From Escherichia coli (GTDB lineage: Bacteria; Pseudomonadota; Gammaproteobacteria; Enterobacterales; Enterobacteriaceae): a DNA stretch of 64,000 nucleotides. Numbering within the stretch: position 1 is the stretch's first letter; every line of letters begins with the position of its first letter. The position numbers were made by a program, and so were the translations under genes. The stretch lies in the NCBI RefSeq assembly GCF_024223415.1, contig NZ_CP100500.1. One strand, written 5' to 3'. Of this stretch, positions 30,507 through 47,057 are shown piece after piece. Under the pieces are notes generated by a model. That model did not search any database and was not told where the DNA came from. It saw only the letters and a program-made list of their open reading frames with translations.

Positions 30507-30554
30507 AAGTGAATAAGTGAATAAGTGAATAAGTGAATAAGTGAATAAGTGAAT
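30507..30554. repeat. 8-bp tandem repeat (aagtgaat) x6 in the 5' leader of the antirestriction gene
   Basis: Six perfect tandem copies at 30507-30554 plus a partial copy overlapping the start codon region (30491-30501). Confidence 0.9.
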
Positions 30555-30594
30555 AGATAAGAGAGAAAAGGCTGCGCCTCTCAGGCAGAAGGCA

Positions 30595-31413
30595 TCAGCG
30601 CATACTCACCAGCAGCGTTTCCGCCATCACCCACAATGCACGATTGAGCTTAATGTCGGTATCAATGCTGTGAATGGCCCGGGTATGGATACGTTTTCCT
30701 TTTGCGCTGCGTCCCTGAAGACCGCCTTTGAGCATATTCTCCTGGATGGTCTGATAAGCACTCCACAGGTCCCTGCCGTAATCCTCCCGGCGTCGTGGTG
30801 TCAGAATGTCGGCGGTGGTGACGGGCTGATGTTCGTCACCATAACGGTAAGTCAGTGCCGCCTGTGCCAGCGCCTGACGAGCCGGTGGTGGTAAAATCAG
30901 CGACTGCATGGCATCACGCTTCTCCTCAATCCGGTCAAACACGCCCACAACCTCGTAAGCCCCTTCGATGACCCTGTCCACCACGTTTCCCCGGTGCGGG
31001 ACACGCACCTCTCCGAGAGACTGACCACAGACACATCCGTTCTGACACACGAACCGGAAGTAACCCGGCAGCATCTGGTAGCTGGAGGTACCGTCATGGG
31101 AGTTCAGCAGGATGATTTCAGGAACGTGCTGTCCGTTTATCTCCCCGTCACGGCGCAGACGCAGCATGTGCTTTGTGTATCCCCGGCGTCCCGGGTCACG
31201 CACGCGGGTCTGGCAGGCAAAGAACGGCTGAAAGCCTTCCCGCTGCAGGCTTTCCAGTACGGTGATGGTGGGGATGTATGTATAGTTCCGGCTCCGGGAG
31301 GTGTGCTTATCTTCCCCGAAAATCCCGGGCACATGGTGCATCAGCTCTTCACGGGTCAGCGGACGGTCACGGCGTATCTGGTTCGCATAACCGAAACGAC
31401 TGGCTAATCGCAT
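30595..31413 (-). CDS. DUF932-domain protein (YfjQ/YafZ family)
   Basis: 272 aa; conserved position and architecture in CP4-like islands. Confidence 0.7.
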   Translation of the reverse strand: MRLASRFGYANQIRRDRPLTREELMHHVPGIFGEDKHTSRSRNYTYIPTITVLESLQREGFQPFFACQTRVRDPGRRGYTKHMLRLRRDGEINGQHVPEIILLNSHDGTSSYQMLPGYFRFVCQNGCVCGQSLGEVRVPHRGNVVDRVIEGAYEVVGVFDRIEEKRDAMQSLILPPPARQALAQAALTYRYGDEHQPVTTADILTPRRREDYGRDLWSAYQTIQENMLKGGLQGRSAKGKRIHTRAIHSIDTDIKLNRALWVMAETLLVSMR

Positions 31414-31597
31414 ACTTTGCTCCTTATCGGTGGTTAATATTTACTGATGTAATAAATGAAAAAGCCGCGTCTCCCGGGGAAGACGCGCCTGATGGATGAA
31501 ATGAATGAGGGTTTACCGAAGTCCTTCAGCATTGAGGTGAAGCAGCCGGAAAGGTGTTACCTGGTCATCGACGGGTCAGGTCAAAAAGCGGGGACAT

Positions 31598-32482
31598 TCA
31601 GAACAGGCGATCCCACAGTGTGACCAGCAGGCGGATAATGCGATCACGGGCTTTGCGCAGAAGCTGCAGCATCCAGGCCGGAAAGCTGAACCGGGCAATG
31701 GCAGCGTCAAAACTCTGGCCGATGGCGTCACCAAAAGCCTGCTGTGCGTGTTGCTGATCCTGCGCAGTGCGCTTTTCATTCCGGATATGCGAATAAACCG
31801 CGCTGGTTGCCTGTGGTGGCAGGGCGTGGATCATCAGAGACACAAATGCCGGAAGATTCCAGCCGGCAGGGGCGGCTATGGGGAGTACCGGAAATGATGA
31901 AGGGAACAGGGTTGCCACCCGGGCTGTCACCGTCGCCAGTGAGAGTTCCTGCTGACGGGATGGCGTGCTGCTCTGGTTGTTCCATTCTTCAGCCGGGTGG
32001 ATGCGATCGGCATGGCTGAGAACAAACAGAAAACGCGAGGGATCGGCACCTTCATTCAGTAAAAACTGATGCATGGCGATGTCGGCAGCATACGCACGTT
32101 CATCAGCCCGCAGGATCCAGATAATCAGATCCAGTTCGGGCAGTAACTGACTGTAAAGTGCCCGGTATTCCTGATCATGCTGTGGTGTTTCGCCAGTGCC
32201 GGGCAGATCGACCAGCGTCATTCTTCGTTCACCGGGCTGAAAGGTAAGACGATGAGCCTGACGGGTGCAGCCGTTCAGCGGATGCGTGGCGCAGACACGG
32301 GACTGAAAAATGGCATTGCACAGGCTGCTTTTTCCGGCACCGGATTTACCCATAATGCCAATAACGGGTTCGTACTGAATGACGCTGCGAAGATGTTCAA
32401 GGATTTTCTGGCGAATTTCTTCAGGAAGAAAGGTCAGATGTGACTTTACGTGTGCGGAGAGGGAAGAATGGCTGAATGACAT
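31598..32482 (-). CDS. YeeP/YkfA/YfjP-family GTPase
   Basis: 294 aa; P-loop IGIMGKSGAGKSSLCNAIF; DLPG G3 motif; typical island GTPase. Confidence 0.8.
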   Translation of the reverse strand: MSFSHSSLSAHVKSHLTFLPEEIRQKILEHLRSVIQYEPVIGIMGKSGAGKSSLCNAIFQSRVCATHPLNGCTRQAHRLTFQPGERRMTLVDLPGTGETPQHDQEYRALYSQLLPELDLIIWILRADERAYAADIAMHQFLLNEGADPSRFLFVLSHADRIHPAEEWNNQSSTPSRQQELSLATVTARVATLFPSSFPVLPIAAPAGWNLPAFVSLMIHALPPQATSAVYSHIRNEKRTAQDQQHAQQAFGDAIGQSFDAAIARFSFPAWMLQLLRKARDRIIRLLVTLWDRLF

Positions 32483-32582
32483 ACCGTTATCCTGTTGATT
32501 TCACTGAACCGGATCACATTAATCCGGCCTATCAGTCAGGTAATATGGACGTGAAAATTTTTCCATTGACGGGAAGAAGAGT

Positions 32583-33806
32583 ATGGCTAAAAACAAAGGT
32601 ATCTGTCGGAATAAAAAATGCAGCAATCCTGTTTCAGAATTTGATGAGGCAAATGCCCTGAGGTTATGTGATGATCATTATCAGTTATGGAAACGAAATA
32701 AAGAGAACCGTCGGGTCAGGAATATTTGTCGTATAATCAGTAAATATGACAAAAGTCTGGACCGGGAGATATTTGACAGAGTAATAGATGCTGCAAGAAA
32801 TCAAACGGGAAAGAGAATTGTTGAGGACGCAAAAATATTACATCAATTGCGCAATTCAAAGCAAGTAAGAAAAAGTCTTCATAATGGAGTACTCCGGTCA
32901 CGGGAATGGCTCAATACACAGGAGTTACTGAGAAGAAAAAATATATCTGTTACAGGTGACTCATTTAAATCTTACATAAAGGATATTGTCAGATTATATT
33001 GCTATAAGTTTCTCTACAGCAGAGAATATCTTAATGAAAACGCATGCAAAAAACAATATCAGAGAGTTATTAACCCCAGAGAATTTAATGTTCCGATACT
33101 TCAACTTGAAGTTGCATGGATCAATAATAATTGCCGTTCAAGTGATTCAAGCTCTGATATTATCATCCTTCCCAGGATGATAAGAAGAATGGTTGTATTT
33201 AATGATACGAAGATAAATAAACAATTAGAGGAAATGTTGGGGGGGATAGCACGAAAAAAAGTCGCAGTAAGGAATAAAGGCGGTCTCTATACCAGAATAA
33301 AAAAAGAAAATGATTTTCGTTCTATGGATAGATTTATGGTGGAAATCGAAAATATCATAAGACCTGAAATATTTCCGACATCAATTTACCCGCCTTTTTC
33401 ACTTTCATTTATCGAGAGAGAATTGCCACTACTGAATCTGGCGCACTCACAGTACAAAAGAGCAATAAGTAAAAAAGTGGCGAATTCAATTTTTTATACT
33501 TTGCGAAAAACTCACGTGGCATTATGGCTGCATCTTGAAATGTTTGCTCTTGTGGCATTCATCAAACTGTATACAGGAAAAGGGTTTGAATTCATGAAAA
33601 ACATGTGTGTATTTATAGATTATGATAAAGGGATAATAAAATCCACGCATGAAGAACTGCTGAGTGAAATTAAGTGTAACATTCAGTTGAATTTAAAGGT
33701 GAATTCTGATAATTTTCCTGAATTAATAGAAGTATACAATTCATGCTTTAGTAAAAATATATTGTTGTATGATGTTCAGGATGATGGTTTTAAATGGTGT
33801 TTATGA
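32583..33806 (+). CDS. AT-rich orphan hypothetical protein with N-terminal Cys/His cluster
   Basis: 407 aa, Lys/Asn/Ile-rich, far lower GC than its surroundings; N-terminal CRNKKCSNP...CDDH could be a zinc-ribbon; no recognisable family. Confidence 0.5.
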   Translation: MAKNKGICRNKKCSNPVSEFDEANALRLCDDHYQLWKRNKENRRVRNICRIISKYDKSLDREIFDRVIDAARNQTGKRIVEDAKILHQLRNSKQVRKSLHNGVLRSREWLNTQELLRRKNISVTGDSFKSYIKDIVRLYCYKFLYSREYLNENACKKQYQRVINPREFNVPILQLEVAWINNNCRSSDSSSDIIILPRMIRRMVVFNDTKINKQLEEMLGGIARKKVAVRNKGGLYTRIKKENDFRSMDRFMVEIENIIRPEIFPTSIYPPFSLSFIERELPLLNLAHSQYKRAISKKVANSIFYTLRKTHVALWLHLEMFALVAFIKLYTGKGFEFMKNMCVFIDYDKGIIKSTHEELLSEIKCNIQLNLKVNSDNFPELIEVYNSCFSKNILLYDVQDDGFKWCL

Positions 33807-35304
33807 TGTGAAAATATTAAATTTATATTACATTTTAATTATCGACAAAAAACACATAAAGAAATCTAAAGGGAATGAGCGTCAAATGAGCTGATATAGC
33901 GCCAGTTTGGTATGGTCATGTGATTTGATGATTAAAGCTTACGGATAATAACACTCCTCTGTGAGCCATATAAATGAGCATGCCATAATCGTCAGTTCAG
34001 AGATAAAACTGACTGAATGATCTTATGTTATAGTAAGCAGTGTTTACCGGATACGATGACTTATCTCTCTCACATCATATGGATTCACTTTCATGGGGTA
34101 AAGCGATGGGACTACAGACGCTGATTATGATGGTTTGCTGTAAAGTTAGCACAAGTTTTTGCTGTACAGAATACGGAGTAAGAAAAATAATTCCAGAGTA
34201 AATCTGCTCTGCTTTTGAACAGAAAAGATTCATGCTTACCGTGAAAAACTGAAACCAACATTCAGTCTGCATGGATGTCTTAAGATGTTGAGAATGTCGG
34301 ATATGGTATTATATACACCTTTTCCATTAGGTCCTTTTATGTTTTCATTAAGTCGTTTTGTATGTATTCCTCCAGTGATTCATTAGTGCCTGTTTACGCA
34401 TTTACACACTTTTCCCATTAATCTCCTTTAAATGTGTTTCATTACGCATTGCTGTACACATTTTTGAACTGATACACATCCAAGTTAGTAAACCTGTCAG
34501 TTCTGATTTTACGTTAACTAAATCAGTTTAATGCTGCTGTAAAACAATCCTTCCTGTTTAAGCAATCAATCTGCTATTCGATTTTACTGATGTGACGTTT
34601 AACCTTTCCTGAGCTTTGGTTGTTTGTGGTTTTTGGTTTGTGTTTCGACGTTAAGCTGAGAAAAGTATCTTTACGCTAAATCAACCCGAACTTTCCTGAG
34701 GTGATCTGACGTTCTTTTCGATGTGCTTACGACGATTCTGTTAAACGACTTTCTGGATGTTTTGATAACAATCAGATTGAGGCATTAACGATTCCTGACG
34801 TTTTGCTTTTTCATGTAAGGTCATTGTTTTCGTCATGATGTGGTTTTTCTTCTTGCATTGCGAAAGTGTGATGATTGGTTTTGGTTTTTTGATTCAGATG
34901 AGATTTACGTTATCGATGGTTAATCGTTTTTATGGTGAGTAGTGAAACGTAACATTTTCGGGATGAGAAAATCGATTCTGATGGTGATGGGGATGATCGT
35001 GTTACGGCGTTATCTGTAAACAGGTTTTAAACGTGTCATTCGCATTCGTGATTGAGTTGTGTGATTAAGCTGTAGGTTTTGGCGTTGTTGTTGATTTGCA
35101 TTGCCAGGAAGCGTTCTGGTTGCGTTTCTGGTGTTTTGTTCGAATGTTCTGTGGATCCTTTTCCCTTCAGGCTTTTCTCGTCGTCCATGTCGTTTTTAAA
35201 TCCATTCATGCTGTTGTTGCGTGTTTTGCTGCTGTGTGCAGGATTATCTTTTCGTTCCGGGATGGTTTGTTCCGTTTCAATCACTCTTAATCAGAGAGTT
35301 GTAG

Positions 35305-35379
35305 CATTGCTTAATGACATGATGCCGTAAAGTTTTACCGCGGTGATTAATGATGTGAAGTCAATCCAAATCAACGGAG
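35305..35379 (+). promoter_or_regulatory. conserved leader motif upstream of Rep-like genes (second copy at 42311-42344)
   Basis: cattgcttaatga...tgtgaag...tcaa...cggag occurs just before the start at 35390 and again about 150 bp before the start at 42494; the 35k copy has an internal duplication of ttaatga. Confidence 0.4.
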
Positions 35380-35389
35380 ATCTCTCATC

Positions 35390-36121
35390 ATGAATCAACC
35401 AATACACAATGCTTACTGGTTATCCCGTTTTGACAGCCTTCTCGACAGTGCCCTGTCGCAGCACCGTGCCGTCTCGTTAATCCGGGTGGATTTACGTTTC
35501 CCTGAGTATATGCCTGTCACCATCATGGATCCCGATCCGGATTCAGCGGTGATTTCTCGTTTTTTCGAATCCCTGAAAGCCAAAATCCAGGCTTACCAGC
35601 GGAAAAAACGACGTGCCAACAAGCGTGTGCGTGCAACCACTCTGCGTTATTTCTGGTGTCGGGAGTTTGGCAAGGAAAAAGGCAGGAAACATTATCACGT
35701 GATATTGCTGCTCAACAAAGATACCTGGTGCTCGCCAGGGGATTTCAGCGAACCATCTTCGCTGGCGACGATGATCCTGGAGGCATGGTGCAGCGCCCTG
35801 CATCTTGAGGCCTGGCAGGGTAATGGACTGGTTCATTTTTCCAGGCGGACGCCTTTCCGTAAACCGACATCATCTGATGCTCGCCCTTCTTCCGATGATA
35901 CGCCTTTGTCGGGTGGATGTTCTGATACCAGGAAGGCTTCAGACAAAAAGCCGGGTGAAGCCGCTGTTCTCTGGATCAAGCGTGGTGATGTGGCAGCGAT
36001 GCAGAAAGCCCGGAAAAGAGCCCGTTATCTCGTGAAAAATCAAACGAAGCAGCATAATGGTTCCGGTCAACGTAATTATGGTTGCAGCCGTGGGCCGGGG
36101 CGTCTGCTGGATGGCAGGTGA
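35390..36121 (+). CDS. YagK/YfjJ-family protein (inovirus Gp2-like, HUH Rep-like)
   Basis: 243 aa; HUH-like motif KHYHVILLL; RBS ggag; preceded by a 1.5 kb noncoding leader. Confidence 0.65.
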   Translation: MNQPIHNAYWLSRFDSLLDSALSQHRAVSLIRVDLRFPEYMPVTIMDPDPDSAVISRFFESLKAKIQAYQRKKRRANKRVRATTLRYFWCREFGKEKGRKHYHVILLLNKDTWCSPGDFSEPSSLATMILEAWCSALHLEAWQGNGLVHFSRRTPFRKPTSSDARPSSDDTPLSGGCSDTRKASDKKPGEAAVLWIKRGDVAAMQKARKRARYLVKNQTKQHNGSGQRNYGCSRGPGRLLDGR

Positions 36122-36631
36122 AGTCTGTAAAACGGTATCCGGTGCCAGGGGGGGGATATCACGGTAAGGGCGTCAGCCAACGTCTTTCGCTCGTATTCTG
36201 ATAACCCGTCCTGAAGTCATGTATCTGCTTCCATTCTCATGTTCATATTTCTCTTACGCTTTCACTGTCTGTCATCGGAAGTACCGATTTATTTTGGTGC
36301 TGCGCACTTACGGCCATTCACGGAAGAGGATTGTGGTGAACAGTAGGAGTCTGGCTGCTGGCGAGGGAAGGTTCAGGACTGGTATGGGGTTTAGTGCTGG
36401 AGGATGACTTTGAATCCCGGATTGACCAGTGAGGGGGCAGTGAGAGGATGCTCTGGTGTAACAGGTCTGGATTACAAAATATAAAACCGGTTGTACACTC
36501 GTAACGGGTAAAAGGATACGGGCAATAACACGTGGTACCCGGTGAGACTGGCTCTTGTATCACATTACCGGGAATATTCTGGCAGGTGAAATGTTCTGAT
36601 AAGAATCATCCTGAGGGAGGATACAACGGAT

Positions 36632-37084
36632 ATGAACGTTATTGACAGCCGCATTCGTGATGTGAAATTTGGTGAAAATGTGAAAGTCGTCATGCCAGTA
36701 AACCTCTATGAATGTGAACTGGGGGATGATGTTTTTATCGGTCCCTTTGTGGAAATACAGAAGGGATGCATCATTGGCAACCGGAGCCGAATTCAGTCCC
36801 ACAGTTTCATCTGTGAGAACGTCATTTTAGGTGATGCCTGTTTCATCGGTCATGGCGTAACTTTTCCTAATGATCTGTTTAAGTGTGGTGGTCCCGATAC
36901 CTCTGCAGAAAGCTGGATACGCATCGTATTAGGTAACACTGTAACAGTGGGTAGTGGAGCGACCATTTTAACAACAGAAATTTGCAGTGGAGCTGTGATT
37001 GGTGCTGGTAGTGTGGTTACAAAGCCCGTGCTGGTAAAAGGCGTGTATGCGGGTAATCCGGCCAGACTTTTGAGAACGCTTTAA
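36632..37084 (+). CDS. hexapeptide-repeat (left-handed beta-helix) acetyltransferase
   Basis: 150 aa with repeated [LIV]-G-x-x-x-x hexapeptides (IGNRSRIQSHSFICENVILGDACFIGHGVTF...); RBS gaggga. Confidence 0.75.
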   Translation: MNVIDSRIRDVKFGENVKVVMPVNLYECELGDDVFIGPFVEIQKGCIIGNRSRIQSHSFICENVILGDACFIGHGVTFPNDLFKCGGPDTSAESWIRIVLGNTVTVGSGATILTTEICSGAVIGAGSVVTKPVLVKGVYAGNPARLLRTL

Positions 37085-37335
37085 TTATTGAATCCAATAT
37101 TAAACCAGACAGACAGTAAACATAATACTGTTCCGGATATCGCTTGCCGCAGGAACCTCCTTAACATTCAGGAAAATAAAGCTTTTATTGCTGCTATGTA
37201 CCATAAGAGACAGAAGTAATTGATTTACCAGTATTACACCTGTTGAAGCTATGGTTATTCACCTTTTATTTTTTGAGCAGCGTATTTATACTTCCCGGAG
37301 CATTGTTTAAATATAATCGCCCGGGATTGATTCGT

Positions 37336-38241
37336 ATGGCTCTTGAACAGGAAATCGCAAACCTTGTAAACGAGTTTGTCGCGGCTGGTCGTCCATCCTG
37401 TCGTGACCAGACCTTTGATGAACGCCGTGCCGGATATATCGCAAGTACTGCTCTGGCCGGCGATACAGAAACCCGCGTAAACATCAGTGATGTGATTATT
37501 GACGATGTTTTATTGCGCATATTTTCGCCTTTAAACGATGATGGGGTGTTATCCGCAATTGTCTATTATCATGGTGGCTGTTTTGTCAGTGGTGGTTTTG
37601 TAACCCATGATAATCAGTTGCGACAGCTTGCTTTCCTGAGCGGTTGTCGTGTCATTGCTGTACAATATCGATTAACGCCGGAACATATTTATCCTGCGGC
37701 ACATGACGATGCTGAACATGCCGCTAATATTGTGTGGCAACACGCAGAAATGTTGAAAGTTGATCGCAACAGAATAACGTTAATGGGGGATAGCGCTGGG
37801 GGACATCTTGCACTGATAACAGCACTGCGGGTTAAAAACATCGGTCAGTGGTTACCGCGAAAATTAATACTTATTTACCCTATGCTGGATGCCACAGCAT
37901 CATGTGATAGTTACAAATTAAACGGTAGTGACTATGTGCTGACAGCAGACACGTTTCTTAGTGGTTATGAGGCTTATTTTTCCGGTCAGGATTTAGAACA
38001 TCCGGAAGTGAGTCCATTATTCAGGAATGATTTCAATGGGTTACCACCTGTTCATGTCATCACAGCGGAATATGACCCATTACGCGATGAAGGTGAGGAA
38101 CTGTTTTCCCGTATGATTCAACAAGGAGTAAAGTGTACCGCCCAGCGTTATCTCGGTGTCATTCACGGTTTTTTCCAGCTTGGCGGCATTAGCCAGACAG
38201 CCCGTAATCTGATGCAGGATATTTGTGGGATTGTTAAATAA
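37336..38241 (+). CDS. alpha/beta hydrolase, esterase/lipase (HSL/Aes-like) family
   Basis: Oxyanion-hole motif HGGCF (YYHGGCFVSGG) and nucleophile motif GDSAGG; start placed at the internal Met MALEQEIANL (track ORF begins at 37243). Confidence 0.65.
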   Translation: MALEQEIANLVNEFVAAGRPSCRDQTFDERRAGYIASTALAGDTETRVNISDVIIDDVLLRIFSPLNDDGVLSAIVYYHGGCFVSGGFVTHDNQLRQLAFLSGCRVIAVQYRLTPEHIYPAAHDDAEHAANIVWQHAEMLKVDRNRITLMGDSAGGHLALITALRVKNIGQWLPRKLILIYPMLDATASCDSYKLNGSDYVLTADTFLSGYEAYFSGQDLEHPEVSPLFRNDFNGLPPVHVITAEYDPLRDEGEELFSRMIQQGVKCTAQRYLGVIHGFFQLGGISQTARNLMQDICGIVK

Positions 38242-38487
38242 TCACGTAACAAGCAGCTACAGGTAAATTAGCTGAGCATGCATCCATCATTTGTCGCTGC
38301 GATGCCAGACTTCCGGATGCTCATATGTTGTTTTACTTTTGTCAGCATAAATGCTGCGTCGGGACTGGTGAATGGAGATAAGCCATTTTATTATCGACGT
38401 CAGAGAACATACTCACAATGTCGGTATGTTTCTGAAATTAAGGGTAAGTTTTGCGCTGATTACAGTATGCGAAGGAGATCTGGCACA

Positions 38488-40080
38488 ATGAATCCCGCTT
38501 ATATGCAATCCCCCCATTTCCCGGCAGATTTAACATACAGATTATTTCCTCGTAAGCTTGCGTATCTCATTGACGACTTATATGAAAGTACCCAACTTCC
38601 GCTGGATCTCATTTTTAATACTGTACTGGCAACGCTCTCACTCTCCTGTCAGTCATTGGTTGACGTTGTTCATCCTCACACCAACATGCCGGAACCCTGC
38701 TCACTTTATCTGTTGACAATCGCAGAGCCAGGCGCGGGAAAAACAACGATAAACAGACTGGTGATGAACCCCTGTTACGACTTTGCCGATCGACTCATTC
38801 AACAATACGAAGAGAGAAACAAAGATTATAAAACTGAACTACAGATCTGGAATACCCGACAGAAAGCTCTTTCTGCCAGTTTAAGAAAGGCTATTAACCG
38901 GGGGTATCCGGGAGAACAGGAAGAAGAGGCGCTGCGTAATCACGAAAGAAATAAACCGACACGTCCGGTTCGACCGAATTTTATCTATGAAGATGTTTCA
39001 CTTAAAGCGCTTGTGGAAGGACTCAACGAGCATCCGGAGGCGGGAGTTATTTCTGATGAAGCGGTAACTTTTTTCAGAAGCTATCTGAAAAATAGTCCTG
39101 GTCTGTTGAATAAAGCATGGAGTGGACAACCGTTTGATTTTGGACGGGCTGACGAGAAATATCATATCACTCCACGCCTGACATTTTCGCTAATGTCCCA
39201 ACCGGATGTTTTTACGGCTTATATAAATAAAAATGATGTACTGGCCAGGGGAAGCGGATTTCTTTCCCGGTTTCTGTTCAGTCAGGTTGTAAGTTCTTCC
39301 TGGATACGTGATTATACGAGAGGTGAGTTCAGAACAATACCAACCCTGGAGAATTTTCATAAAAAGATTAACGGATTTCTGTTAAGCCATAACATTAATT
39401 CCCCCGGCATGAGCACCGAAAGGAAGACATTAAAACTTGCGAAGAAAGCGTTGGGGGAGTGGCAGGAAAACCAGAGTAAGATTGAAAGCAAAGCGCTTGC
39501 AGGAGGGGAGTGGGAACACATCAGAGATATTGTTCTGAAAGCAGGTTCTAATATACTGAGGATAGCGGGTTTATTCACCTTCTATGGCAATAAAGATGCT
39601 GAGGAAATTGAATCAATTGCGCTTTTTAACGCCATGCATCTCATGGACTGGTATCTGGAGGAGGCAAGCGCAATATTTTATCCCATGTCTGAGCGACGCC
39701 AGTTTGAGCAGGATGCCTGTGAACTGTATGCATGGATTATGACCCGAATCAGGCAGAATAACTGGTGTGCTATCAGGAAAACAGATATTGAAAGATATGG
39801 TCCCAATCGACTGAGAAGAGCAGAAAAGCTTACACCTGTACTCAATCAGTTAATTGCTCAGAATTATTTCTGTATCATCAAAATGCGCTCGCATCAGGCA
39901 CTTTATGTTTCTGTTCGTAACAATAATGGTTACCTCCTTCCTTTCGGCACAATGTCTTACGAACCGTTTGATGTTGTACCCTCCTTGTATAGTCATAATG
40001 CGAAAATATATCCCGTTAATATTCCACCGGAATTAATCCAGTCATTTGCGTTACCTTTTTCAGCCTATAACTTATTCTGA
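38488..40080 (+). CDS. DUF3987-like primase/helicase-type P-loop protein (YfjI-like)
   Basis: P-loop AEPGAGKTT; start placed at the Met with RBS aaggag (track ORF begins at 38278); typical partner of AlpA and Rep-like genes in P4-like islands. Confidence 0.65.
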   Translation: MNPAYMQSPHFPADLTYRLFPRKLAYLIDDLYESTQLPLDLIFNTVLATLSLSCQSLVDVVHPHTNMPEPCSLYLLTIAEPGAGKTTINRLVMNPCYDFADRLIQQYEERNKDYKTELQIWNTRQKALSASLRKAINRGYPGEQEEEALRNHERNKPTRPVRPNFIYEDVSLKALVEGLNEHPEAGVISDEAVTFFRSYLKNSPGLLNKAWSGQPFDFGRADEKYHITPRLTFSLMSQPDVFTAYINKNDVLARGSGFLSRFLFSQVVSSSWIRDYTRGEFRTIPTLENFHKKINGFLLSHNINSPGMSTERKTLKLAKKALGEWQENQSKIESKALAGGEWEHIRDIVLKAGSNILRIAGLFTFYGNKDAEEIESIALFNAMHLMDWYLEEASAIFYPMSERRQFEQDACELYAWIMTRIRQNNWCAIRKTDIERYGPNRLRRAEKLTPVLNQLIAQNYFCIIKMRSHQALYVSVRNNNGYLLPFGTMSYEPFDVVPSLYSHNAKIYPVNIPPELIQSFALPFSAYNLF

Positions 40081-40856
40081 AATAAACCAACACAGATGAA
40101 ACGAAAAAAAACAACATTCATTCGAAGGTTGGTGGTAAGGAGTTTGCATATCCTGCATCTGTGCAAATATTCACCAGTTATGGGGCGCGAACGAAAATTT
40201 CTCTGAAAAAATCGCTACGGTAGCAACAGTAGCAGCACATGCACCATGTCTGTTATTTGATTTTGTTTTCATAATGACCTGTTGTCAAAGCTGATTGAAT
40301 ACAGGAGTGTGCGCACTGGTGGAAGAGTGGCTTTCGTTTTTGGTTATTCGAAAGAAAATCGAAATATTGTTTTTAACATAGCTGAAGCTAATCATATAAC
40401 CATATTTTTTGAGTTTTTATATATAACTTTGTTTGATTCTTGTCGTAATGAGTGCTGGCGTATATGACGATGTCGCTCTCTTTCTGAATAACGAAAGGTT
40501 ATCAGTCTTTTACTGACAAGAGATGCTGTTCAGGTTTCAATGGGAGATTGAAGAAAAACGATTTGATATTTTCCGTGAGAGAATGTCTTGTCAGGTTCAT
40601 ATTCATAACGGATAATTTCTTATTTTCACTCATCAGACATGGATAATTTTAATTTAGGTTTATTACTATAATTAGTATCTGTTCCTTTATTTTTATCCAT
40701 CTATCCCTTTATTTTTCATCTATCTATCCTTTTATTATTAGTATCTGTATTTTTATTATTGGCATCTGTCTATTTATTTTTATCATTCTCTCCTCTCTGT
40801 CTTTACTCTCATTGCTCTTACTCTCATTCTGTTATTTCTACTCGTGTTATCGTGTT

Positions 40857-40944
40857 CACTCTATCACTCTATCACTCTATCACTCTATCACTCTATCACT
40901 CTATCACTCTATCACTCTATCACTCTATCACTCTATCACTCTAT
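40857..40944. repeat. 8-bp microsatellite (cactctat) x11 inside a pyrimidine-rich repeat-dense noncoding region
   Basis: Eleven perfect tandem copies; degenerate ~22-bp and ~14-bp repeats lie just upstream (40660-40856). Confidence 0.9.
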
Positions 40945-41689
40945 CCATCTCTCAATCATAACGATTGTCACTCATATGATACTCAGCCATGTTATTTTCT
41001 ACTGCTCTGCTGAGCTTATCTGTCTGTTCTCATCTTCAGTGAAACAGCACCTGATTTTACTCTTATCCATCATGAACTGTCTTTGTTCAACGATGATGGT
41101 ATGTCTGATATGTGTTAACCATTTTGATGGGTATCGTTGATTATCCGATGGTTAAGCTTCGATAAGGTTATCCATAGAACAGTGTGGGGTAAGCAACATG
41201 ATCCCTGATGATATTTGTTCCGTGTTGTCTTGTTGTTTAAGCGACAGGAAATATGTCAATGGCATGTTTTATTCTGCTGCCGTGAGCCATGCATGTTCTG
41301 AAGAACAGATTGAATGAGCGCATGTGAGTTTATTACGTTGGCCTTGTACACGTTTTTTTAGAACCACTGAGAGCAAGTTTGTAGTTTATGATGCTATTGG
41401 TCGTAATATGTTTCTTGAACTTTTGATCGTGGGTTTTTATCTCGTATTTTTCAGCATTTCTCGGTGTTGTATTGCGTCGATATTTTCTTTATTCCCGTTA
41501 ATATCATCTCGTCAGTGTCCATTCCTTTCATCACAATGCGTATCGTTAATAATCTGTTGTATCCATCCGCCTACAGCATGCCTGATAAATACCGTCTGTC
41601 AGTTATTACCGTTTTAGATCTGATTATGAGCGAAGGTATTCATTCGCTGACAGAACTTAAAACGTCATTAACTTACAGGAGTTATCAGC

Positions 41690-42240
41690 ATGCCTCAGTC
41701 TTACACACCAGACTGGTTTTTTACCGCCTTACTTGACCATCACATCGATCAAATGATGGCTCGCTATTCCTGTCTGCGGGCCTTACGGATGGATTTCTTC
41801 TACAGGAAAGAGACGCCTGATTTCTTACAACCTGATCACCGCTGGCTTGAATTGCAGTTGCGTATGCTGCTGGACCAGGTTGAACGGTTTGAAAATATGG
41901 TTGGTTTCTTCTGGGTGATTGAATGGACGGCTGATCATGGTTTTCATGCGCATGTGGTTTTCTGGATCGATCGTCAGAGGGTGAAAAAATATATCCCTTT
42001 GCGGAGCGGATAACCGAATGCTGGCGGGCTATTACGTATAACTGTGGTTCGGCGCACCGCTGTACATACCAGCCGCATTATGCATACAACATCAACATTC
42101 CCGTGCGCCACAACGATCCTGAAAGCATCGATAATATTCGCGGTGCCCTGCATTATCTGGCGAAAGAAGAGCAAAAAGACGGACTGTGTGCATACGGCTG
42201 CAGCGAAGTGCCTGAACGTCCTGCTGCAGGGCGACCACGC
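41690..42240 (+). pseudogene. YagK/YfjJ-family Rep-like gene, frameshifted
   Basis: MPQSYTPDWFF...DHGFHAHVVFWIDRQ (HUH-like HAH) then continues in another frame (...ITYNCGSAHRCTYQPHYAY...ALHYLAKEEQKDG...). Confidence 0.5.
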
Positions 42241-42493
42241 AAGCTTCACGTCTGAAGCTTAAACCCTGAACCTCCGCACCTGGAAACAAGCCATCGGTAA
42301 AAACTTACCGCATTGCTTAATGATGTGAACCGAAGTCAACGGAGTTCATTCACCCTGAATGTTCTTTCCTGATATTCCCGCTCAGCGTCGGTTCTTCACC
42401 TGTTCCATCAACCTCATCCGCAGCCTGTAACCCGTCAGCCCATCCATCCCCGGGCAGGACGCGTTGTGGGCTGCGCATAACGGAGCATATCCT

Positions 42494-43069
42494 ATGAATG
42501 CTTTCCCTTATTTCGACGACAGCATGGCCCCCTTCTGGCCTTCGTATCAGAACAAAGTTATTGGCGTTCTTGACCGTGCGCTGCGTGAGCAGTCCGGCTC
42601 CCGGATACGTCGTATCCTGCTTCGTCTGCCGTGGGAACCCGATAACACCTTCAGCAGCCGCAGGACCTGGTTCGGTATGGCCTTTATTGAAACCGTCAGC
42701 GACCTGATGAATGCAACCCCCGGACGTGACCTCTGCTGGCTCCTGACACGTCATCCTGAAAAGCTGGAATACCACGTGGTGCTGTGCGTCAGGCAGGAGT
42801 ATTTCGACGGCCCTGAACTGGATCGGCTGATTCTGGATGCCTGGAGCAACGTGCTGGGCTTCGCCTCACCGGGGGAAGCGGCACCGTATCAGAAGCAGAT
42901 TACCCGGGATGTGCTGCTGGATCCCCGTTCACCGGACTGCGAGGAACTGTTCAGAGACCTGATCTGGGCGTTCAGTGATTTCGCACGTGATCGCCGGGGG
43001 GTATACGATCCGGAAGCCCGTCACCTCGCCGGTAATCCCTGGTATCCCGGATCAGCAGGACGGCGCTGA
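42494..43069 (+). CDS. YagK/YfjJ-family-like protein
   Basis: Start at the ATG with RBS ggag (MNAFPYFDD...); ...EYHVVLCVRQEYF... region; sits between the frameshifted paralog and alpA. Confidence 0.5.
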   Translation: MNAFPYFDDSMAPFWPSYQNKVIGVLDRALREQSGSRIRRILLRLPWEPDNTFSSRRTWFGMAFIETVSDLMNATPGRDLCWLLTRHPEKLEYHVVLCVRQEYFDGPELDRLILDAWSNVLGFASPGEAAPYQKQITRDVLLDPRSPDCEELFRDLIWAFSDFARDRRGVYDPEARHLAGNPWYPGSAGRR

Positions 43070-43133
43070 ACATCATGTTCAGCCGTTCCCCCGAACTTAC
43101 ACATCCTTCCATTTCACCGAGGATATTCCGACC

Positions 43134-43367
43134 ATGTTGAGCACAACAACATCCCACGACAGCGTATGGTTGCGTGACGACGATCCCCTGATCGACATGA
43201 TTTTCATCACCAGTTTCACCGGCATGACCGACAAATGGTTCTACCAGCTGATGAGCGAAGGCAGGTTCCCGAAGCCCATCAAACTGGGCCGCAGCAGCCG
43301 CTGGTACAGAAGCGAAGTGGAGCAGTGGATGCAGCAGCGCATCGAAGCATCACGGGGAGAAGCATGA
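43134..43367 (+). CDS. alpA: AlpA-family phage regulatory protein (small HTH)
   Basis: 77 aa; ...LIDMIFITSFTGMTDKWFYQLMSEGRFPKPIKLGRSSRWYRSEVEQWM... is the classic AlpA/prophage CP4-57 regulator signature; RBS gagga. Confidence 0.75.
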   Translation: MLSTTTSHDSVWLRDDDPLIDMIFITSFTGMTDKWFYQLMSEGRFPKPIKLGRSSRWYRSEVEQWMQQRIEASRGEA

Positions 43368-43548
43368 AAGGTATTGTGATACCGGTTCGCTGGCAATGTG
43401 CAAACTGCCGGCGCTGGTATTGTGGTAATCCCCCCTGCCCCTGGTGCTGGCGACCTGCTGCACCGTCTGTCATTCCTCATCCTTCGCTGTAACAGGCATC
43501 GTACCGGTGCCGGCGTGCTTTCCTGTGCACCGGCACCGGTTCAGAAAC

Positions 43549-44085
43549 ATGCAAAGAGAGCAAATCGTGCAGATAACCGAAACCGTACTTTCAGAGCCGG
43601 TGGAAATCCGGCGTTTTATTCAGCAGGCGGTGGATCACTGGCCGCGTCTGCTGGCCGTTCAGTTCACACTTCATTCAACAGGAGGAAATTGTGACGGGAG
43701 GCAGATTCATGCGTTTTACTGGGCATTTTACCGACAGCTGAATCAGCGAAGCCATACCGGATATCCGTTACTGCCGGTGGTGCTACGCTGGCTGCGGGAA
43801 ACGACAGAAAGCACAGACAGCACCGGGATACGCTGTCTGTTGCTGATCAGCCAGGATCTCATTTGCCCACCAGGATCCAGAATGACGTCTGATGACGCTG
43901 ATTCGCACCTTGTGGCGTTACTGCAGCAGGCCGGCACCACACTCACGGCAGAAGGGCACTGTACGGTGGTATGCTGTTACAGGGTGGTGCGTGCAGCCAC
44001 ACCTGAAGGCGCTGAGTCACTCACGGCATTCAGAAACGCGTGCCTTTCGTTGGCCAGGCCCGTGATGGCCGGCATCATCCGCTAA
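43549..44085 (+). CDS. hypothetical protein (island-associated), start uncertain
   Basis: ORF 43444..44085; first ATG in a plausible context at 43549 (MQREQIVQITE...); no recognisable motif. Confidence 0.35.
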   Translation: MQREQIVQITETVLSEPVEIRRFIQQAVDHWPRLLAVQFTLHSTGGNCDGRQIHAFYWAFYRQLNQRSHTGYPLLPVVLRWLRETTESTDSTGIRCLLLISQDLICPPGSRMTSDDADSHLVALLQQAGTTLTAEGHCTVVCCYRVVRAATPEGAESLTAFRNACLSLARPVMAGIIR

Positions 44086-44211
44086 GCAACATGATGTATC
44101 CCGGTTCAGCCGCTGAAACCGGCTCCTTCAGCAGCAGACCGGTATGAGGTTGTTCCCCCGGACATTCCTTCGTAGAATCCGTGCTGTGTTCGTACTTCCG
44201 GAGCCGTCGCC

Positions 44212-47057
44212 ATGAAAATCTGTCTTTACCATACCCTGAATCCTGAAACGATCCCGGGCTATAAAAAGTTTGCGCAGGCCATTGAGGCAGATAATTTCGC
44301 GCAGGCGGATGTGCGTAAAATTGATACTAATCTCTACCGGGCACGCCTCAGTATCCGGGATCGGTTGTTGTTTTCACTTTACCGTTACCGTGGTGAGACG
44401 GTCTGCCTGGTACTGGAATATCTGCGTAACCATGCTTACCACACGTCACGTTTTCTGCGCAGGAATGTGGTGATCGACGAGGCGCGGCTGCAGCTGCAAC
44501 CGGTGCCGGATCCGGCAGATGCAGACGCCGGTACACTGACGTATCTCAACCCCACTCACGGGCGTTTTCACTACCTGGATAAAATGCTCTCTTTTGATGA
44601 TGACCAGCAGGCGCTGTATGAACATCCGATGCCACTGGTGATTGTCGGCTCCGCCGGCAGCGGAAAGACGGCACTGTTACTGGAGAAAATGAAGCAGGCC
44701 GGGGGCGATATTCTGTATCTCAGCCTTTCGTCATTTCTGGTGGAAAAAGCCCGCACACTCTATCACGCATCTGGTGAAGAACATGACGGGCAGACCATTG
44801 ATTTTCTGTCGCTGAGCGAGTTTCTGGAAACCCTGCGCATTCCGGAAGGGCGGGAGGTGACGTTCAGTGCGTTCAGCAACTGGCTGCCCCGCAACCGGAC
44901 CACCGCTGCACTGGCCTCTGGCCATACCCTGTATGAGGAATTTCGTGGTGTCATTGGTGCCGTTGCTTCTGACAACGGACCGCTGTCCCGGGAGGCGTAT
45001 CTGTCGCTGGGAGTACGTCAGTCACTTTATGATATGGATGACCGTCCGGCGGTTTACGCCCTGTTTGAGCGTTATGTTGCATGGCTGAAACAGTCGCGTC
45101 AGTATGACAGTAATCTTCTCAGCCACCAGTACCTGCCACTGGCCGGGCACCGTTATGATGTGGTTTTTGTGGATGAAGTGCAGGATATGACGCCTGTGCA
45201 GCTGCGGCTGGTTCTGAAAACCCTGCGTCATCCCGGTCAGTTTGTACTCTGCGGCGATGCCAATCAGATAGTTCATCCCAGCTTTTTTCCTGGAGTGCCC
45301 TCAAAAGCCTCTTTTTCCGGCAGCAACAGAACGAGGCTGCCGTGAATATTCTGCAGGCGAATTACCGTAACGGGCACCATGTCACCGCACTGGCTAACCG
45401 GCTGCTCAGACTTAAACTGGCCCGGTTCAGTGCCATTGACCGGGAAAGTCACCATTTTGTCAGAAGCTGCGGGCAGACGGAAGGCACCATCAGGCTGCTG
45501 GAAGACCGGGAAGCCACCCGCCATGAGCTGAACAGCAAAACCTCCCGCTCAAACCGTGTGGCGGTGATTGTGATGCAGCCGGAGCAGAAAGCACAGGCCC
45601 GGCGCTGGTTCAGTACACCGCTGGTTTTTTCGGTTCAGGAAGTGAAGGGGCTCGAGTACGAAACGGTGATCCTGTACAACATGGTCAGCAGTACCCGTAA
45701 GGCATTTGATGATATCTGCGAAGGGATCAATCCGGCAGATCCTGAGGGTGAGGTGCGTTATGCCCACCCCCGGGACCGGCAGGATCGTTCAGCAGAAATC
45801 TACAGGTTTTTCACCAACGCGCTGTATGTTGCGCTCACCCGTGCCACGCACAACGTGTACCTTGTTGAGCAGGAGGTGGCCCATCCGCTGTGGTCCCTGC
45901 TGGCCCTCACGCATCATGAAACGCAACTGGAGCTGCAGGAAGAGATTTCCAGCCGTGATGAGTGGCAGAAAACCGCTCACCTGCTGGAAAAACAGGGGAA
46001 GCAGGAGCAGGCGGACACCATCCGCAGTATGATCCTGCAGGAGTCAGAAGTACCGTGGCAGATCTTCAGCGCAGAGGATGCGCGGCAGTGGAAACAGCAG
46101 ATCCTCAGCGGGACGGCGGACAAAGCCACGAAACTGCAGGCGCTGGAATACAGCCTGATTTATTCCCTGTTTCCGCTGTATAATGCGCTGTACCGGGAAG
46201 ATTTTAAGCCCACAAGGCAGCCCCGGACCCGGAGCCAGCAGTTACTGGAGCAGAAGTATTTTCGTCCCTACTCAGTGAATAATCCGGTCGCCGTGCTGAG
46301 GGATATTGAACGTTATGGTGTTGATCACCGCTCGCCGTTTAATCTTACGCCGCTGATGCTGGCAGCCCGGGCGGGGAACACGGCGCTGGTTCAGTTGCTG
46401 CTGGATCGTGGTGCCGATCCCACGCTGACGGCAAATGACGGGCTGGCGGCGTATCATCATGTTCTGTCAGCGGCGGTCAGCACGCCCCGTTATGCGCAGC
46501 AGAAGGGGGCACAACTCTATGCCTTGCCGGGACCGGAAAGCCTGTCACTGCAGGTGGAAGGGCGGCTTGTCAAACTGGACAACCGGCAGATGGCAATGTT
46601 TCTGGTGATCCTGATGCAGGCATTGTTTTACACGCATCTGGGGAATGCTCTGGTTTTTTCAGAAGCCTTCAGTGCGGCACGACTGGCAGAGTGTGTCGCC
46701 CACTTTCCTGAAGCCCTGCTGCCGGAACGCCGCAGGCGGAGGAATTATATCAGCAGCCAGCTTTCTCAGCATGAAGTTAACAGCAAGAACCCTTATGGAA
46801 AAAAGCTGTTTCTGCGACTGAGGCATGGTCAGTATATTCTTAATCCGGGGCTGAAAATCAGGCAGAATGACGGGTGGTACCCGGTTTACGACTTGCAGTC
46901 ACCGGAAGATCTCGGTCATGATTTACAGACGTATCTGCAGGACATGCCCCCGTACATTCTGGAGATTCTGGGGGGCAGGAAGGATGTTTACGAACAAAGT
47001 AAGGGGTCTGTCGGATACTGGGTGGCGATGATCCGCCGTCACAGTGGTGAGCCGTAA
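44212..47057 (+). pseudogene. UvrD/Rep-like SF1 helicase with C-terminal ankyrin-like repeat, split by a -1 frameshift
   Basis: ORFs 44212..45345 and 45342..47057 are consecutive parts of one helicase: Walker A GSAGSGKT, Walker B VFVDEVQD, GDANQ, then QANYRN and ALTRA motifs in the second frame; ankyrin-like TPLMLAARAGNTALVQLLLDRGADP; adding one T to the T6 run at 45283-45288 restores a continuous frame. Confidence 0.7.

Follow-up and report, generated by a model that had tools for sequence, protein, structure and literature searches.

A long, conserved T-rich noncoding leader upstream of a YagK/YfjJ-family Rep-like gene in Escherichia coli islands

A 64,000-nucleotide stretch of Escherichia coli DNA (hereafter, the window) carries at positions 35390-36121 a gene for a HUH Rep-like protein of the YagK/YfjJ family, and the subject of this work is the long noncoding leader that precedes it. 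We found that this leader is conserved in length and composition across related islands, contains a terminator-like hairpin and a predicted hairpin over the ribosome-binding site of the gene, and ends in a nearly invariant control region with a palindrome that recurs once further downstream. Our preferred interpretation, to which we assign a probability of roughly 0.4, is that the leader is a transcription-blocking, attenuating region equipped with an operator, which silences the Rep-like gene. In E. coli islands, such as the cryptic prophages CP4-6 and CP4-57 of strain K-12, few uncharacterised backbone genes are as common as those of the YagK/YfjJ family; we know of nothing on how they are controlled or on which DNA their products act. 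Herein, a conserved control architecture is defined for one YagK/YfjJ subfamily, with an operator-like motif bracketing a position of variable cargo. In the literature on YfjJ, YagK and 'inovirus Gp2', we found annotation-level mentions and no published description of the leader; one preprint counts Gp2-like genes as part of the core of a class of transducible islands.

Extent and Distribution of the Leader

The initial annotation treated the whole interval 33807-35389 as a noncoding leader. The interval is indeed free of genes, but its conserved part starts only at about 34157. The conserved unit, 34157-35389, directly abuts the Rep-like gene, while 33807-34156 is common only to islands with the same upstream gene of 407 amino acids (aa) and moves with that gene module. 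This non-conserved 5' part holds an inverted repeat, GTCAGTTCAGAGATAAAACTGACTGA, at 33990-34030, which may be the terminator of the 407-aa gene; the segment 33887-34046 folds with a z-score of -2.5.

Compared with complete E. coli chromosomes, the interval 33807-35389 gave matches of up to 99-100% identity, and the leader was matched in 1,877 of 5,426 complete E. coli genomes, nearly always on the chromosome. Four plasmid records, all from E. coli, matched as well. A scan of representatives of 100,044 species returned two loci, both with the leader, and phage and viral-contig collections searched with the element gave no match; the element is essentially absent outside Escherichia-type sequences. 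In all 11 annotated loci that were fetched, an 'inovirus Gp2 family protein' gene abuts the leader, and in 10 of them (the exception being locus L005) a GTPase gene lies beyond the variable genes to the left. Searching gut and food metagenomes with an exact 25-mer of the proximal region brought up 117 stretches; pooled with the genome loci, these yielded 89 unique upstream sequences, which fall into 47 clusters at 97% identity. The cross-clade conservation figures given below rest on 41 of these 47 clusters, namely those collinear over the whole leader.

Coding Potential and Composition

The longest open reading frames (ORFs) within 33807-35389 measure 41-83 aa. On the + strand, ORFs near 35096-35330 change frame from clade to clade, and L005 has stops in all three frames; on the minus strand, an ORF at 35036-35284 that PGAP annotates in part of the genomes is interrupted by in-frame stops in many of the 41 clusters. 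Protein databases offered no relatives of the latter other than short E. coli 'hypothetical proteins' of 50-101 aa encoded at this very locus. The earlier statement that the interval lacks a convincing ORF thus holds: none is conserved, frames shift between clades, and stops are found in many clusters. A decayed protein-coding gene, or a small genuine one within the region, is highly improbable. PGAP does call a 57-aa minus-strand ORF in some genomes, and ORFs of 60-90 aa are present because the A-poor strand (T-poor on the other side) has few stop codons; however, apart from the shifting frames and stops, the relatives are confined to E. coli, and no longer homolog was found in other taxa. 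Overall, related islands conserve both the leader and its motif, and a coding gene could not be demonstrated in the interval.

The GC content of the leader is 37%, compared with 50-52% in the neighbouring gene. With a G+T fraction of 0.667, the segment 34576-35275 is the most extreme 700-nt window of the 64 kb (mean 0.516, standard deviation 0.028). T-richness is uniform along the leader body (T about 0.40-0.42, A about 0.20-0.25), and 34300-35300 contains 27 T-runs of at least four bases versus three such A-runs. A curvature test revealed no helical phasing of the T-tracts. The + strand had been described as G+T-rich from about 34300 onward; the extreme G+T content and the uniform T-richness stand, but C exceeds G over 34320-34610. 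The body therefore comprises two compositional domains (Table 1). In the left one, the C/G ratio is 1.4-2.0 per 78 nt over 34378-34611, and the GC skew is -0.20 (range -0.28 to -0.04) in the 41 clusters. In the right one, C/G is 0.28-0.82 on the + strand and 1.2-3.6 on the minus strand, with a skew of +0.31 (0.23-0.38); the flip occurs at about 34610.

Promoter-like Site, Terminator-like Hairpin and the Proposed Block

The 5' edge of the conserved leader is formed by a distal block that harbours the best conserved sigma-70-like site of the leader (Table 1). The top conserved promoter-like positions on the + strand have -10 hexamers ending at 34307 and 34317, with a median of about 6 bits. Short collinear matches, TAATTSCAGAGTAA and ATGTYGGATA(T)GGTATTATATA (E-values 0.32 and 0.036), connect the block with the region upstream of K-12 yagK, for which a constitutive RpoD promoter, TTTAGA-16-TATAAT, has been tabulated, the yagL-yagK spacer being listed with an H-NS mark as well (PMC3946193). 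According to our reading of the K-12 sequence, the -10 of this promoter would lie within the block that matches the distal block. Between TTGAGA and TATATA of the window, GTCGG-ATAT-GGTA (34294-34310) weakly resembles the AlpA element GGGACG-N5-GGTA, a comparison made with the consensus of Pseudomonas aeruginosa, which may not be that of E. coli AlpA. A minus-strand small RNA from about 34300 to 34193 (TATAAT followed by a T-tailed hairpin) was considered as well and discarded, since neither a -35 nor a structure is conserved there.

Further downstream, 35103-35143 is the sole site combining a hairpin with a T-tract that is conserved over the 41 clusters on either strand. Its variants keep the pairing by one-sided changes (G-U to A-U, G-C to G-U), and it is absent from the L013-type variant. 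A conserved hairpin with a U-tract is thus predicted between the promoter-like site and the gene, on the strand of the gene, as would be expected of an attenuating leader.

No other part of the body appears to be structured. A Rfam scan of 30000-46000 at E <= 1 returned nothing relevant, the two sub-threshold matches lying outside the leader. Folding-energy z-scores in 160-nt windows gave no signal on either strand (-2.5 to +1.9 on the + strand), and RNAalifold with column shuffling over the 41 clusters detected no conserved structure in the body (+ strand z of at least -1.6, consensus energies of -0.2 to -18 kcal/mol). These results, among them the alignment of leaders from homologous islands that the initial annotation had proposed as a check for covariation, speak against one of its three readings, a long noncoding RNA, as far as a structured one is meant. 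One might still imagine an independent, unstructured and U-rich RNA of about 0.8 kb, running from the distal promoter to 35103-35143, with the gene served by its own proximal promoter. The promoter-like block and the only conserved terminator-like site do bracket about 820 nt on the same strand, and a second promoter-like site, with its -10 ending at 35333, is situated 3' of the terminator. Nevertheless, we consider such an RNA improbable: besides the lack of a Rfam match and of conserved or excess structure, its sequence evolves fast, and the L013-type variant, which accounts for 22 of the 89 unique sequences, lacks the terminator segment. We also know of no function for an unstructured RNA of this size.

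Out of the three initial readings (a replication origin or iteron region, a long noncoding RNA and a regulatory leader), the regulatory leader fits best, given the promoter-like block about 1.07 kb upstream, the terminator-like hairpin, the operator-like region and the hairpin over the ribosome-binding site. We suggest the following scenario. A sigma-70-type promoter (approximately 34288-34316), or read-through from upstream cargo, would send RNA polymerase into about 0.9 kb of T-rich untranslated sequence. Rho loading sites are C-rich, G-poor, weakly folded stretches of untranslated RNA, and the first 300 nt of the + strand RNA, being C-rich and G-poor, would be suited to Rho loading; the hairpin at 35103-35143 with its U-tract would serve as an intrinsic terminator. 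Antisense transcripts coming from the gene side would also meet a C-rich, G-poor stretch, such that transcription might be blocked in both directions. Any mRNA reaching the gene, or starting from the weak proximal promoter-like site overlapped by the palindrome, would hide its Shine-Dalgarno sequence and AUG in a hairpin. Expression would then need an island factor, either a palindrome-binding protein or an AlpA-family processive antiterminator encoded downstream.

The body seems to suit Rho as a substrate because it is unstructured on both strands and would give RNA with more C than G either way. Judging from sequence properties (GC of 0.37, C/G ratios, weak folding), it also looks like DNA silenced by H-NS and Rho. 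A 5' untranslated region evading Rho was rejected as the cause of the low C content, as the first 300 nt contain more C than G. In P. aeruginosa, AlpA is a promoter-loaded antiterminator that carries RNA polymerase past downstream terminators (PMC7969949, PMC9371919); by analogy, the AlpA-family protein of the island is a candidate for the factor that relieves the block.

Evolution of the Leader Body

Identity among clades is 89-96% for the Rep-like gene, 61-83% for the leader body and 86-97% for the last 90 nt. The body nonetheless keeps its outline: in the 41 clusters, its median length is 883 nt (interquartile range 863-922, range 642-981), and the T fraction (0.35-0.42), the G+T fraction (0.59-0.63) and the skew flip are held in every cluster. 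Invariant runs of 9-13 bases are dispersed along it. Since presence, length and composition persist despite up to about 27% divergence, selection seems to act on these rather than on the sequence itself.

Larger changes were observed, too. Insertion sequences occur in the body of L010 (IS100) and in the GF60 leader about 170 nt from the gene (IS3), L011 has a deletion of about 270 nt, and in the L013-type variant approximately 34930-35200, including the terminator segment, is replaced by other DNA. The replacement DNA of L013 (2978-3508, minus strand) contains a 176-aa ORF with faint matches to a NikA-like protein (E 0.025) and a D5-like regulator (E 0.003).

Polarisation of rare variants showed complementary substitution classes at similar per-site rates, with 74 losses versus 39 gains of G or T. 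Such similar rates and a net erosion of G+T give no sign of an ongoing strand-asymmetric mutation that would create the skew. A tree-based (parsimony) count gave an equilibrium G+T of 0.56-0.60, a noisy estimate because of recombination, which is itself deduced from the fact that leader and fourfold-site divergences are uncorrelated pair by pair.

These data bring up another explanation, namely that the body is a neutral relic spacer that owes its composition to an ancestral element, only the flanking blocks being functional. Divergence equal to or above that of the gene's synonymous sites is what such a spacer would show, and the tolerated large indels, IS insertions and segment replacement, the lack of structure and ORFs, and the G+T erosion without strand-asymmetric mutation all agree with it. 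On the other hand, a length of about 0.9 kb within narrow limits and the two-domain skew are found in 41 of 41 clusters despite a deletion bias and 10-27% divergence, the terminator-like hairpin is conserved, and a second paralog family retains its own T-rich leader in many of 1,575 genomes; the tree-based count, although noisy, also gave a higher equilibrium G+T. On balance, we think it unlikely that the body is a mere neutral spacer.

Several points weigh against the silencing leader that we favour. Pairwise substitution divergence of the leader (0.04-0.27) is about one to three times the fourfold-degenerate divergence of the gene (0.01-0.16), and much of the body looks dispensable because the insertions, the deletion of about 270 nt and the replacement of the terminator segment are tolerated. 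The promoter-like scores are modest (about 6 bits), the -35/-10 spacing varies between clades, and the hexamer aligned with the TATAAT -10 of yagK reads TATACA in the window. The likeness to the AlpA element is short (GTCG-N5-GGTA), and in most other clades its spacing differs by a single base. As a parallel, the leader of the second paralog (see below) was examined for a terminator-like hairpin; the one seen there is not conserved and was dropped. Finally, promoter use, direction of transcription and termination are all predictions.

Proximal Control Region

The region adjoining the gene is conserved as well as the coding sequence itself (Table 1), with conserved runs at 35320-35338 and from 35349 onward into the gene. 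Within it is a palindrome flanked by direct repeat boxes. The pattern CSGTAA-N4-TTACCG is matched exactly at two positions, 35325 and 42295, and nowhere else, with 0.31 expected when up to one mismatch is allowed, while TTAATGAYRTGAA with up to one mismatch has five matches versus 0.45 expected, a number reached in none of 100 shuffles. The palindrome probably binds a dimeric regulator, and the sequence suggests that the same site stands ahead of the next backbone operon. The consensus fold of 35060-35422, which includes the hairpin over the ribosome-binding site, is the sole standout in the leader (alignment z of -4.9); the pairing of this hairpin receives no covariation information because the proximal region is invariant. 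An 8-bp palindrome with a Dam GATC site, GAGATCTC (35374-35381), encloses the Shine-Dalgarno GGAG and is invariant in all homologs.

The remaining initial reading, an iteron region or replication origin, has to be considered for the body and for this region separately. Some k-mers are in modest excess in the body: TACAC occurs four times versus 0.6 expected, GCATTGC four times versus 0.1 expected, and TTACG is enriched likewise. However, a regular iteron array was rejected, these excesses being mostly non-conserved. The repeats at 34313-34480 are irregularly spaced (50, 32 and 24 nt), with units gained or lost between clades; with an occupancy of 0.45-0.78, this is the least conserved part of the leader, and two of the four GCATTGC copies are conserved. 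The 7-mer TTAATGA is barely enriched across the window (19 versus 10 expected). An origin is thus not supported for the body of about 1 kb, and the reading is left for the proximal motif of 70-100 nt.

As the main rival to the silencing leader, and by analogy with the intergenic region ahead of gene II in Ff phages, the motif at 35300-35389 might be the recognition and nicking site of the HUH Rep protein, i.e., an origin, with the downstream copy as a second site and the body as an accessory or enhancer region or a spacer. In favour of this are the matches of the protein to PF11726 and PF23343 (G2P-type Rep families) together with its HUH and tyrosine motifs, the conservation of the motif at least at the level of the coding sequence, the confinement of the palindrome to the two copies, the accompanying direct repeats, and the direct orientation of the copies, which bracket the Rep-like gene and variable cargo at distances of 0.93-10.2 kb. 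Conversely, the Shine-Dalgarno sequence, start codon and hairpin over the ribosome-binding site explain part of the invariance; the GGAG and the pseudo-start CTGAA of copy 2 suggest a duplicated 5' end of the gene more than a nick site under selection; regular conserved iterons are absent from the body, as is any strongly folding region resembling a single-strand origin; and the gene appears to be under relaxed constraint, with a divergence at codon positions 1+2 about half that at fourfold sites. We know of no nick-site consensus for the YagK/YfjJ family. Taken together, these arguments make us doubt the origin, which we hold to be clearly less probable than an operator in a silencing leader.

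Second Motif Copy, Variable Cargo and the Second Leader

The reported recurrence of the motif ahead of another Rep-like paralog was borne out: the repeat between 35304-35395 and 42297-42360 is real and exceeds chance. The palindrome of copy 2 lies at 42295-42310, and the copy also retains GGAG. A small upstream ORF after copy 2 was rejected, its ATG not being conserved. Among 30 loci with both copies, the distance between them is about 935 nt in 15 and 4.1-10.2 kb in the other 15; it is 6.97 kb in the window. In cargo-free loci, copy 2 stands just 3' of the Rep-like gene and about 190 nt 5' of the 191-aa paralog, after which comes the AlpA-family gene. In the window, the copies are separated by an acetyltransferase gene, an esterase gene, a YfjI-family gene (31% identity to K-12 YfjI), a second leader and a frameshifted paralog. 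The genes directly 3' of the Rep-like gene vary by strain (TIR-domain, restriction endonuclease, ireA, acyltransferase/esterase and YfjI-family genes), as seen in a comparison whose fetched flanks end before copy 2. The position 36121-42295, which is also found in L001, L008, L009, L012, L014, L024, L036 and others, has the appearance of a hotspot at which defence and accessory genes insert. From the positions of the copies it follows that two neighbouring backbone genes have paralogous 5' control regions marked by the motif, and that variable cargo has accumulated between them.

It is tempting to speculate that the two direct copies are HUH Rep sites delimiting a rolling-circle unit, which would give rise to a single-stranded circle bearing the gene along with the cargo between the copies (defence, metabolic or other genes, 0.9-10 kb depending on the strain), but we consider this quite improbable. 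If it were true, the island backbone would be a cassette-capturing or replicating system, and the T-rich leader would be either a silencer that keeps this system off or a strand-specific entry region.

The frameshifted paralog has a noncoding T-rich leader of its own. The unit of leader 2 and its gene is present in 1,575 genomes, with at least 0.75 kb (up to 1.6 kb) of the leader conserved in many of them, and the T fraction of 0.38 is conserved too. Long T-rich leaders are therefore a trait of more than one YagK/YfjJ subfamily. Leader 2 also includes a perfect octanucleotide microsatellite (TCACTCTA) of about 12 copies at 40856-40950, located 3' of two promoter-like sites (40588-40616 and 40759-40786). 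The L008 and L011 homologs do not align across the microsatellite, and the GF60 stretch corresponding to all of 40081-42300 is about 46 nt shorter. Hence the copy number may vary, and phase variation is possible.

Island Setting and the Rep-like Genes

The island hosting the interval is a CP4-57/CP4-44-like island of E. coli; its features are collected in Table 1. The protein encoded at 35390-36121 matches PF11726 (YagK_YfjJ_C) over residues 23-233 with an i-Evalue of 3.5e-37 and, as a second Pfam match, PF23343 (REP_ORF2-G2P) at 6e-08. It shares 31% identity with K-12 YfjJ; on inspection, its HYHVILLL aligns with HYHLIL of YfjJ as the HUH motif, and its RYLVKNQTK with DYMTKVRTK as the tyrosine motif. 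By these sequence matches, the product is assigned to the YagK/YfjJ (PF11726) HUH Rep-like proteins. A sequence search against solved structures found no relative. Across clades, divergence at codon positions 1+2 of the gene is 0.03-0.09, about half that at fourfold sites (0.01-0.16), which suggests that purifying selection on the protein is weak.

The initial annotation counted three Rep-like genes, and all three were retained: the one at 35390 is firmly assigned by Pfam, the one at 41690 firmly through its intact GF60 copy, and the one at 42494 tentatively, by a weak BLASTP match. The frameshift of the 41690 paralog consists of one A missing from an A-run at approximately 41983-41989 (A6 in the window versus A7 in GF60) and could reflect slipped-strand switching, gene decay or an error in sequencing. 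The 42494 paralog gave no match in a Pfam search; its YHVVL aligns with the HUH region of YfjJ, and it has SDFARDR where relatives carry the tyrosine motif Y-L/M-x-K. It is possibly a catalytically dead copy. Further downstream, the overlapping ORFs 44212-45345 and 45342-47057 are one gene with a UvrD-helicase domain, annotated as frameshifted in GF60.

Table 1. Features of the leader and its surroundings (positions in the window)
Feature	Position	Strand	Remarks
Left flank: cbtA/cbeA, yeeT, radC, antirestriction gene, DUF932 gene, GTPase gene		-	
407-aa hypothetical gene	32583-33806	+	directly 5' of the interval
Distal conserved block, 5' edge of the conserved leader	34175-34320	+	column conservation 0.74-0.88 over 41 clusters
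Promoter-like site TTGAGA-N16-TATATA (N15 in most other clades)	34288-34316	+	best conserved sigma-70-like site of the leader
Degenerate direct repeats, irregularly arrayed (units of the TACAC... / TTTTCATTAAG type)	34313-34480	+	k-mer excess; L004 repeat families
Left compositional domain, T-rich with C>G	34320-34610	+	A.246, C.199, G.135, T.420
Right compositional domain, T-rich with G>>C	34611-35160	+	G+T-rich stretch of the initial annotation
Intrinsic-terminator-like hairpin followed by GUGUUUUGUU	35103-35143	+	free energy (dG) -12.7 kcal/mol
Proximal control region, nearly invariant	35300-35389	+	mean pairwise identity 0.86-0.97, on a par with coding sequence
Two direct TTAATGAYRTGA boxes flanking the palindrome	35311-35323, 35347-35359	+	
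Candidate weak promoter TTGCTY-15-TAAAGT	-10 ends at 35333	+	promoter-like scan
16-bp palindrome CCGTAA-AGTT-TTACCG, candidate operator/protein-binding site	35325-35340		overlaps the proximal -10
Predicted RNA hairpin pairing Shine-Dalgarno GGAG and AUG	35345-35396	+	dG -15.8 kcal/mol, z -2.9
YagK/YfjJ-family HUH Rep-like gene, 243 aa	35390-36121	+	annotated 'inovirus Gp2 family protein'
Second leader, noncoding, T-rich (0.38)	40081-41689	+	5' of the 41690 paralog
Second Rep-like paralog, frameshifted in the window	41690-42262	+	intact GF60 copy matches PF23343 and PF11726
Motif copy 2: palindrome CGGTAAAAACTTACCG, TTAATGATGTGAA box, AGTCAACGGAG, pseudo-start CTGAA (for ATGAA)	42295-42360	+	
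Distant YfjJ-like paralog, 191 aa	42494-43069	+	3' of motif copy 2; BLASTP to YfjJ 1e-5
AlpA-family gene, start uncertain	43134-43367	+	conserved backbone; GF60 counterpart annotated AlpA family transcriptional regulator

Comparison with Known Systems

The nearest relatives of the arrangement are the regions upstream of K-12 yagK (CP4-6) and yfjJ (CP4-57), which precede genes of the same family and, in the case of yagK, share short collinear matches with the distal block. However, the K-12 spacers are short (about 150 nt for yfjJ and about 270 nt for yagK) and have neither the 0.9-kb T-rich body nor the terminator-like hairpin and palindrome motif. In the Ff filamentous phages, the intergenic region 5' of gene II combines the origin with the gene II promoter. 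The likeness is in noncoding DNA abutting the gene of a G2P-type HUH initiator and in a palindrome with repeats beside that gene; unlike the Ff region, the leader lacks strong hairpins comparable to a packaging signal or minus origin, and the element is chromosomal and devoid of phage structural genes. Two direct copies of a palindrome motif bracketing a HUH gene and cargo also recall rolling-circle production from directly repeated origins, as in CTX-phi prophage arrays and the ori-ter pairs of IS91/ISCR, but copy 2 here resembles a duplicated 5' region of the gene.

The closest parallel for silencing is the action of Rho and H-NS on AT-rich foreign DNA, which the leader resembles in its GC content of 37% and in its untranslated, unstructured RNA with C>G predicted from both strands. 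The difference is that the leader keeps its skew flip, T-richness and length as a conserved architecture linked to a single gene family, a degree of specificity beyond that of generic AT-rich island DNA. The succession of promoter and terminator before the genes, in an island that has an AlpA-family gene, is reminiscent of AlpA control (alpB, PA0807, in P. aeruginosa) and of the lambda Q type; here, though, the promoter-terminator distance is about 0.8 kb, compared with tens of nucleotides there (PMC7969949, PMC9371919).

If the leader were only a silencing spacer, its description would be a useful annotation and no surprise. Be that as it may, its parts offer oligonucleotide and reporter targets for asking whether YagK/YfjJ proteins act in regulation, in replication initiation or as mobilisation enzymes, and how their islands are kept silent. 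Overall, the components, i.e., promoter, terminator, operator, hairpin over the ribosome-binding site and AT-rich silenced DNA, are all of known kinds. What is unusual is that the leader is a kilobase long, that a two-domain skew is conserved in it along with uniform T-richness, and that a repeated palindromic motif brackets a variable-cargo position beside a HUH gene.

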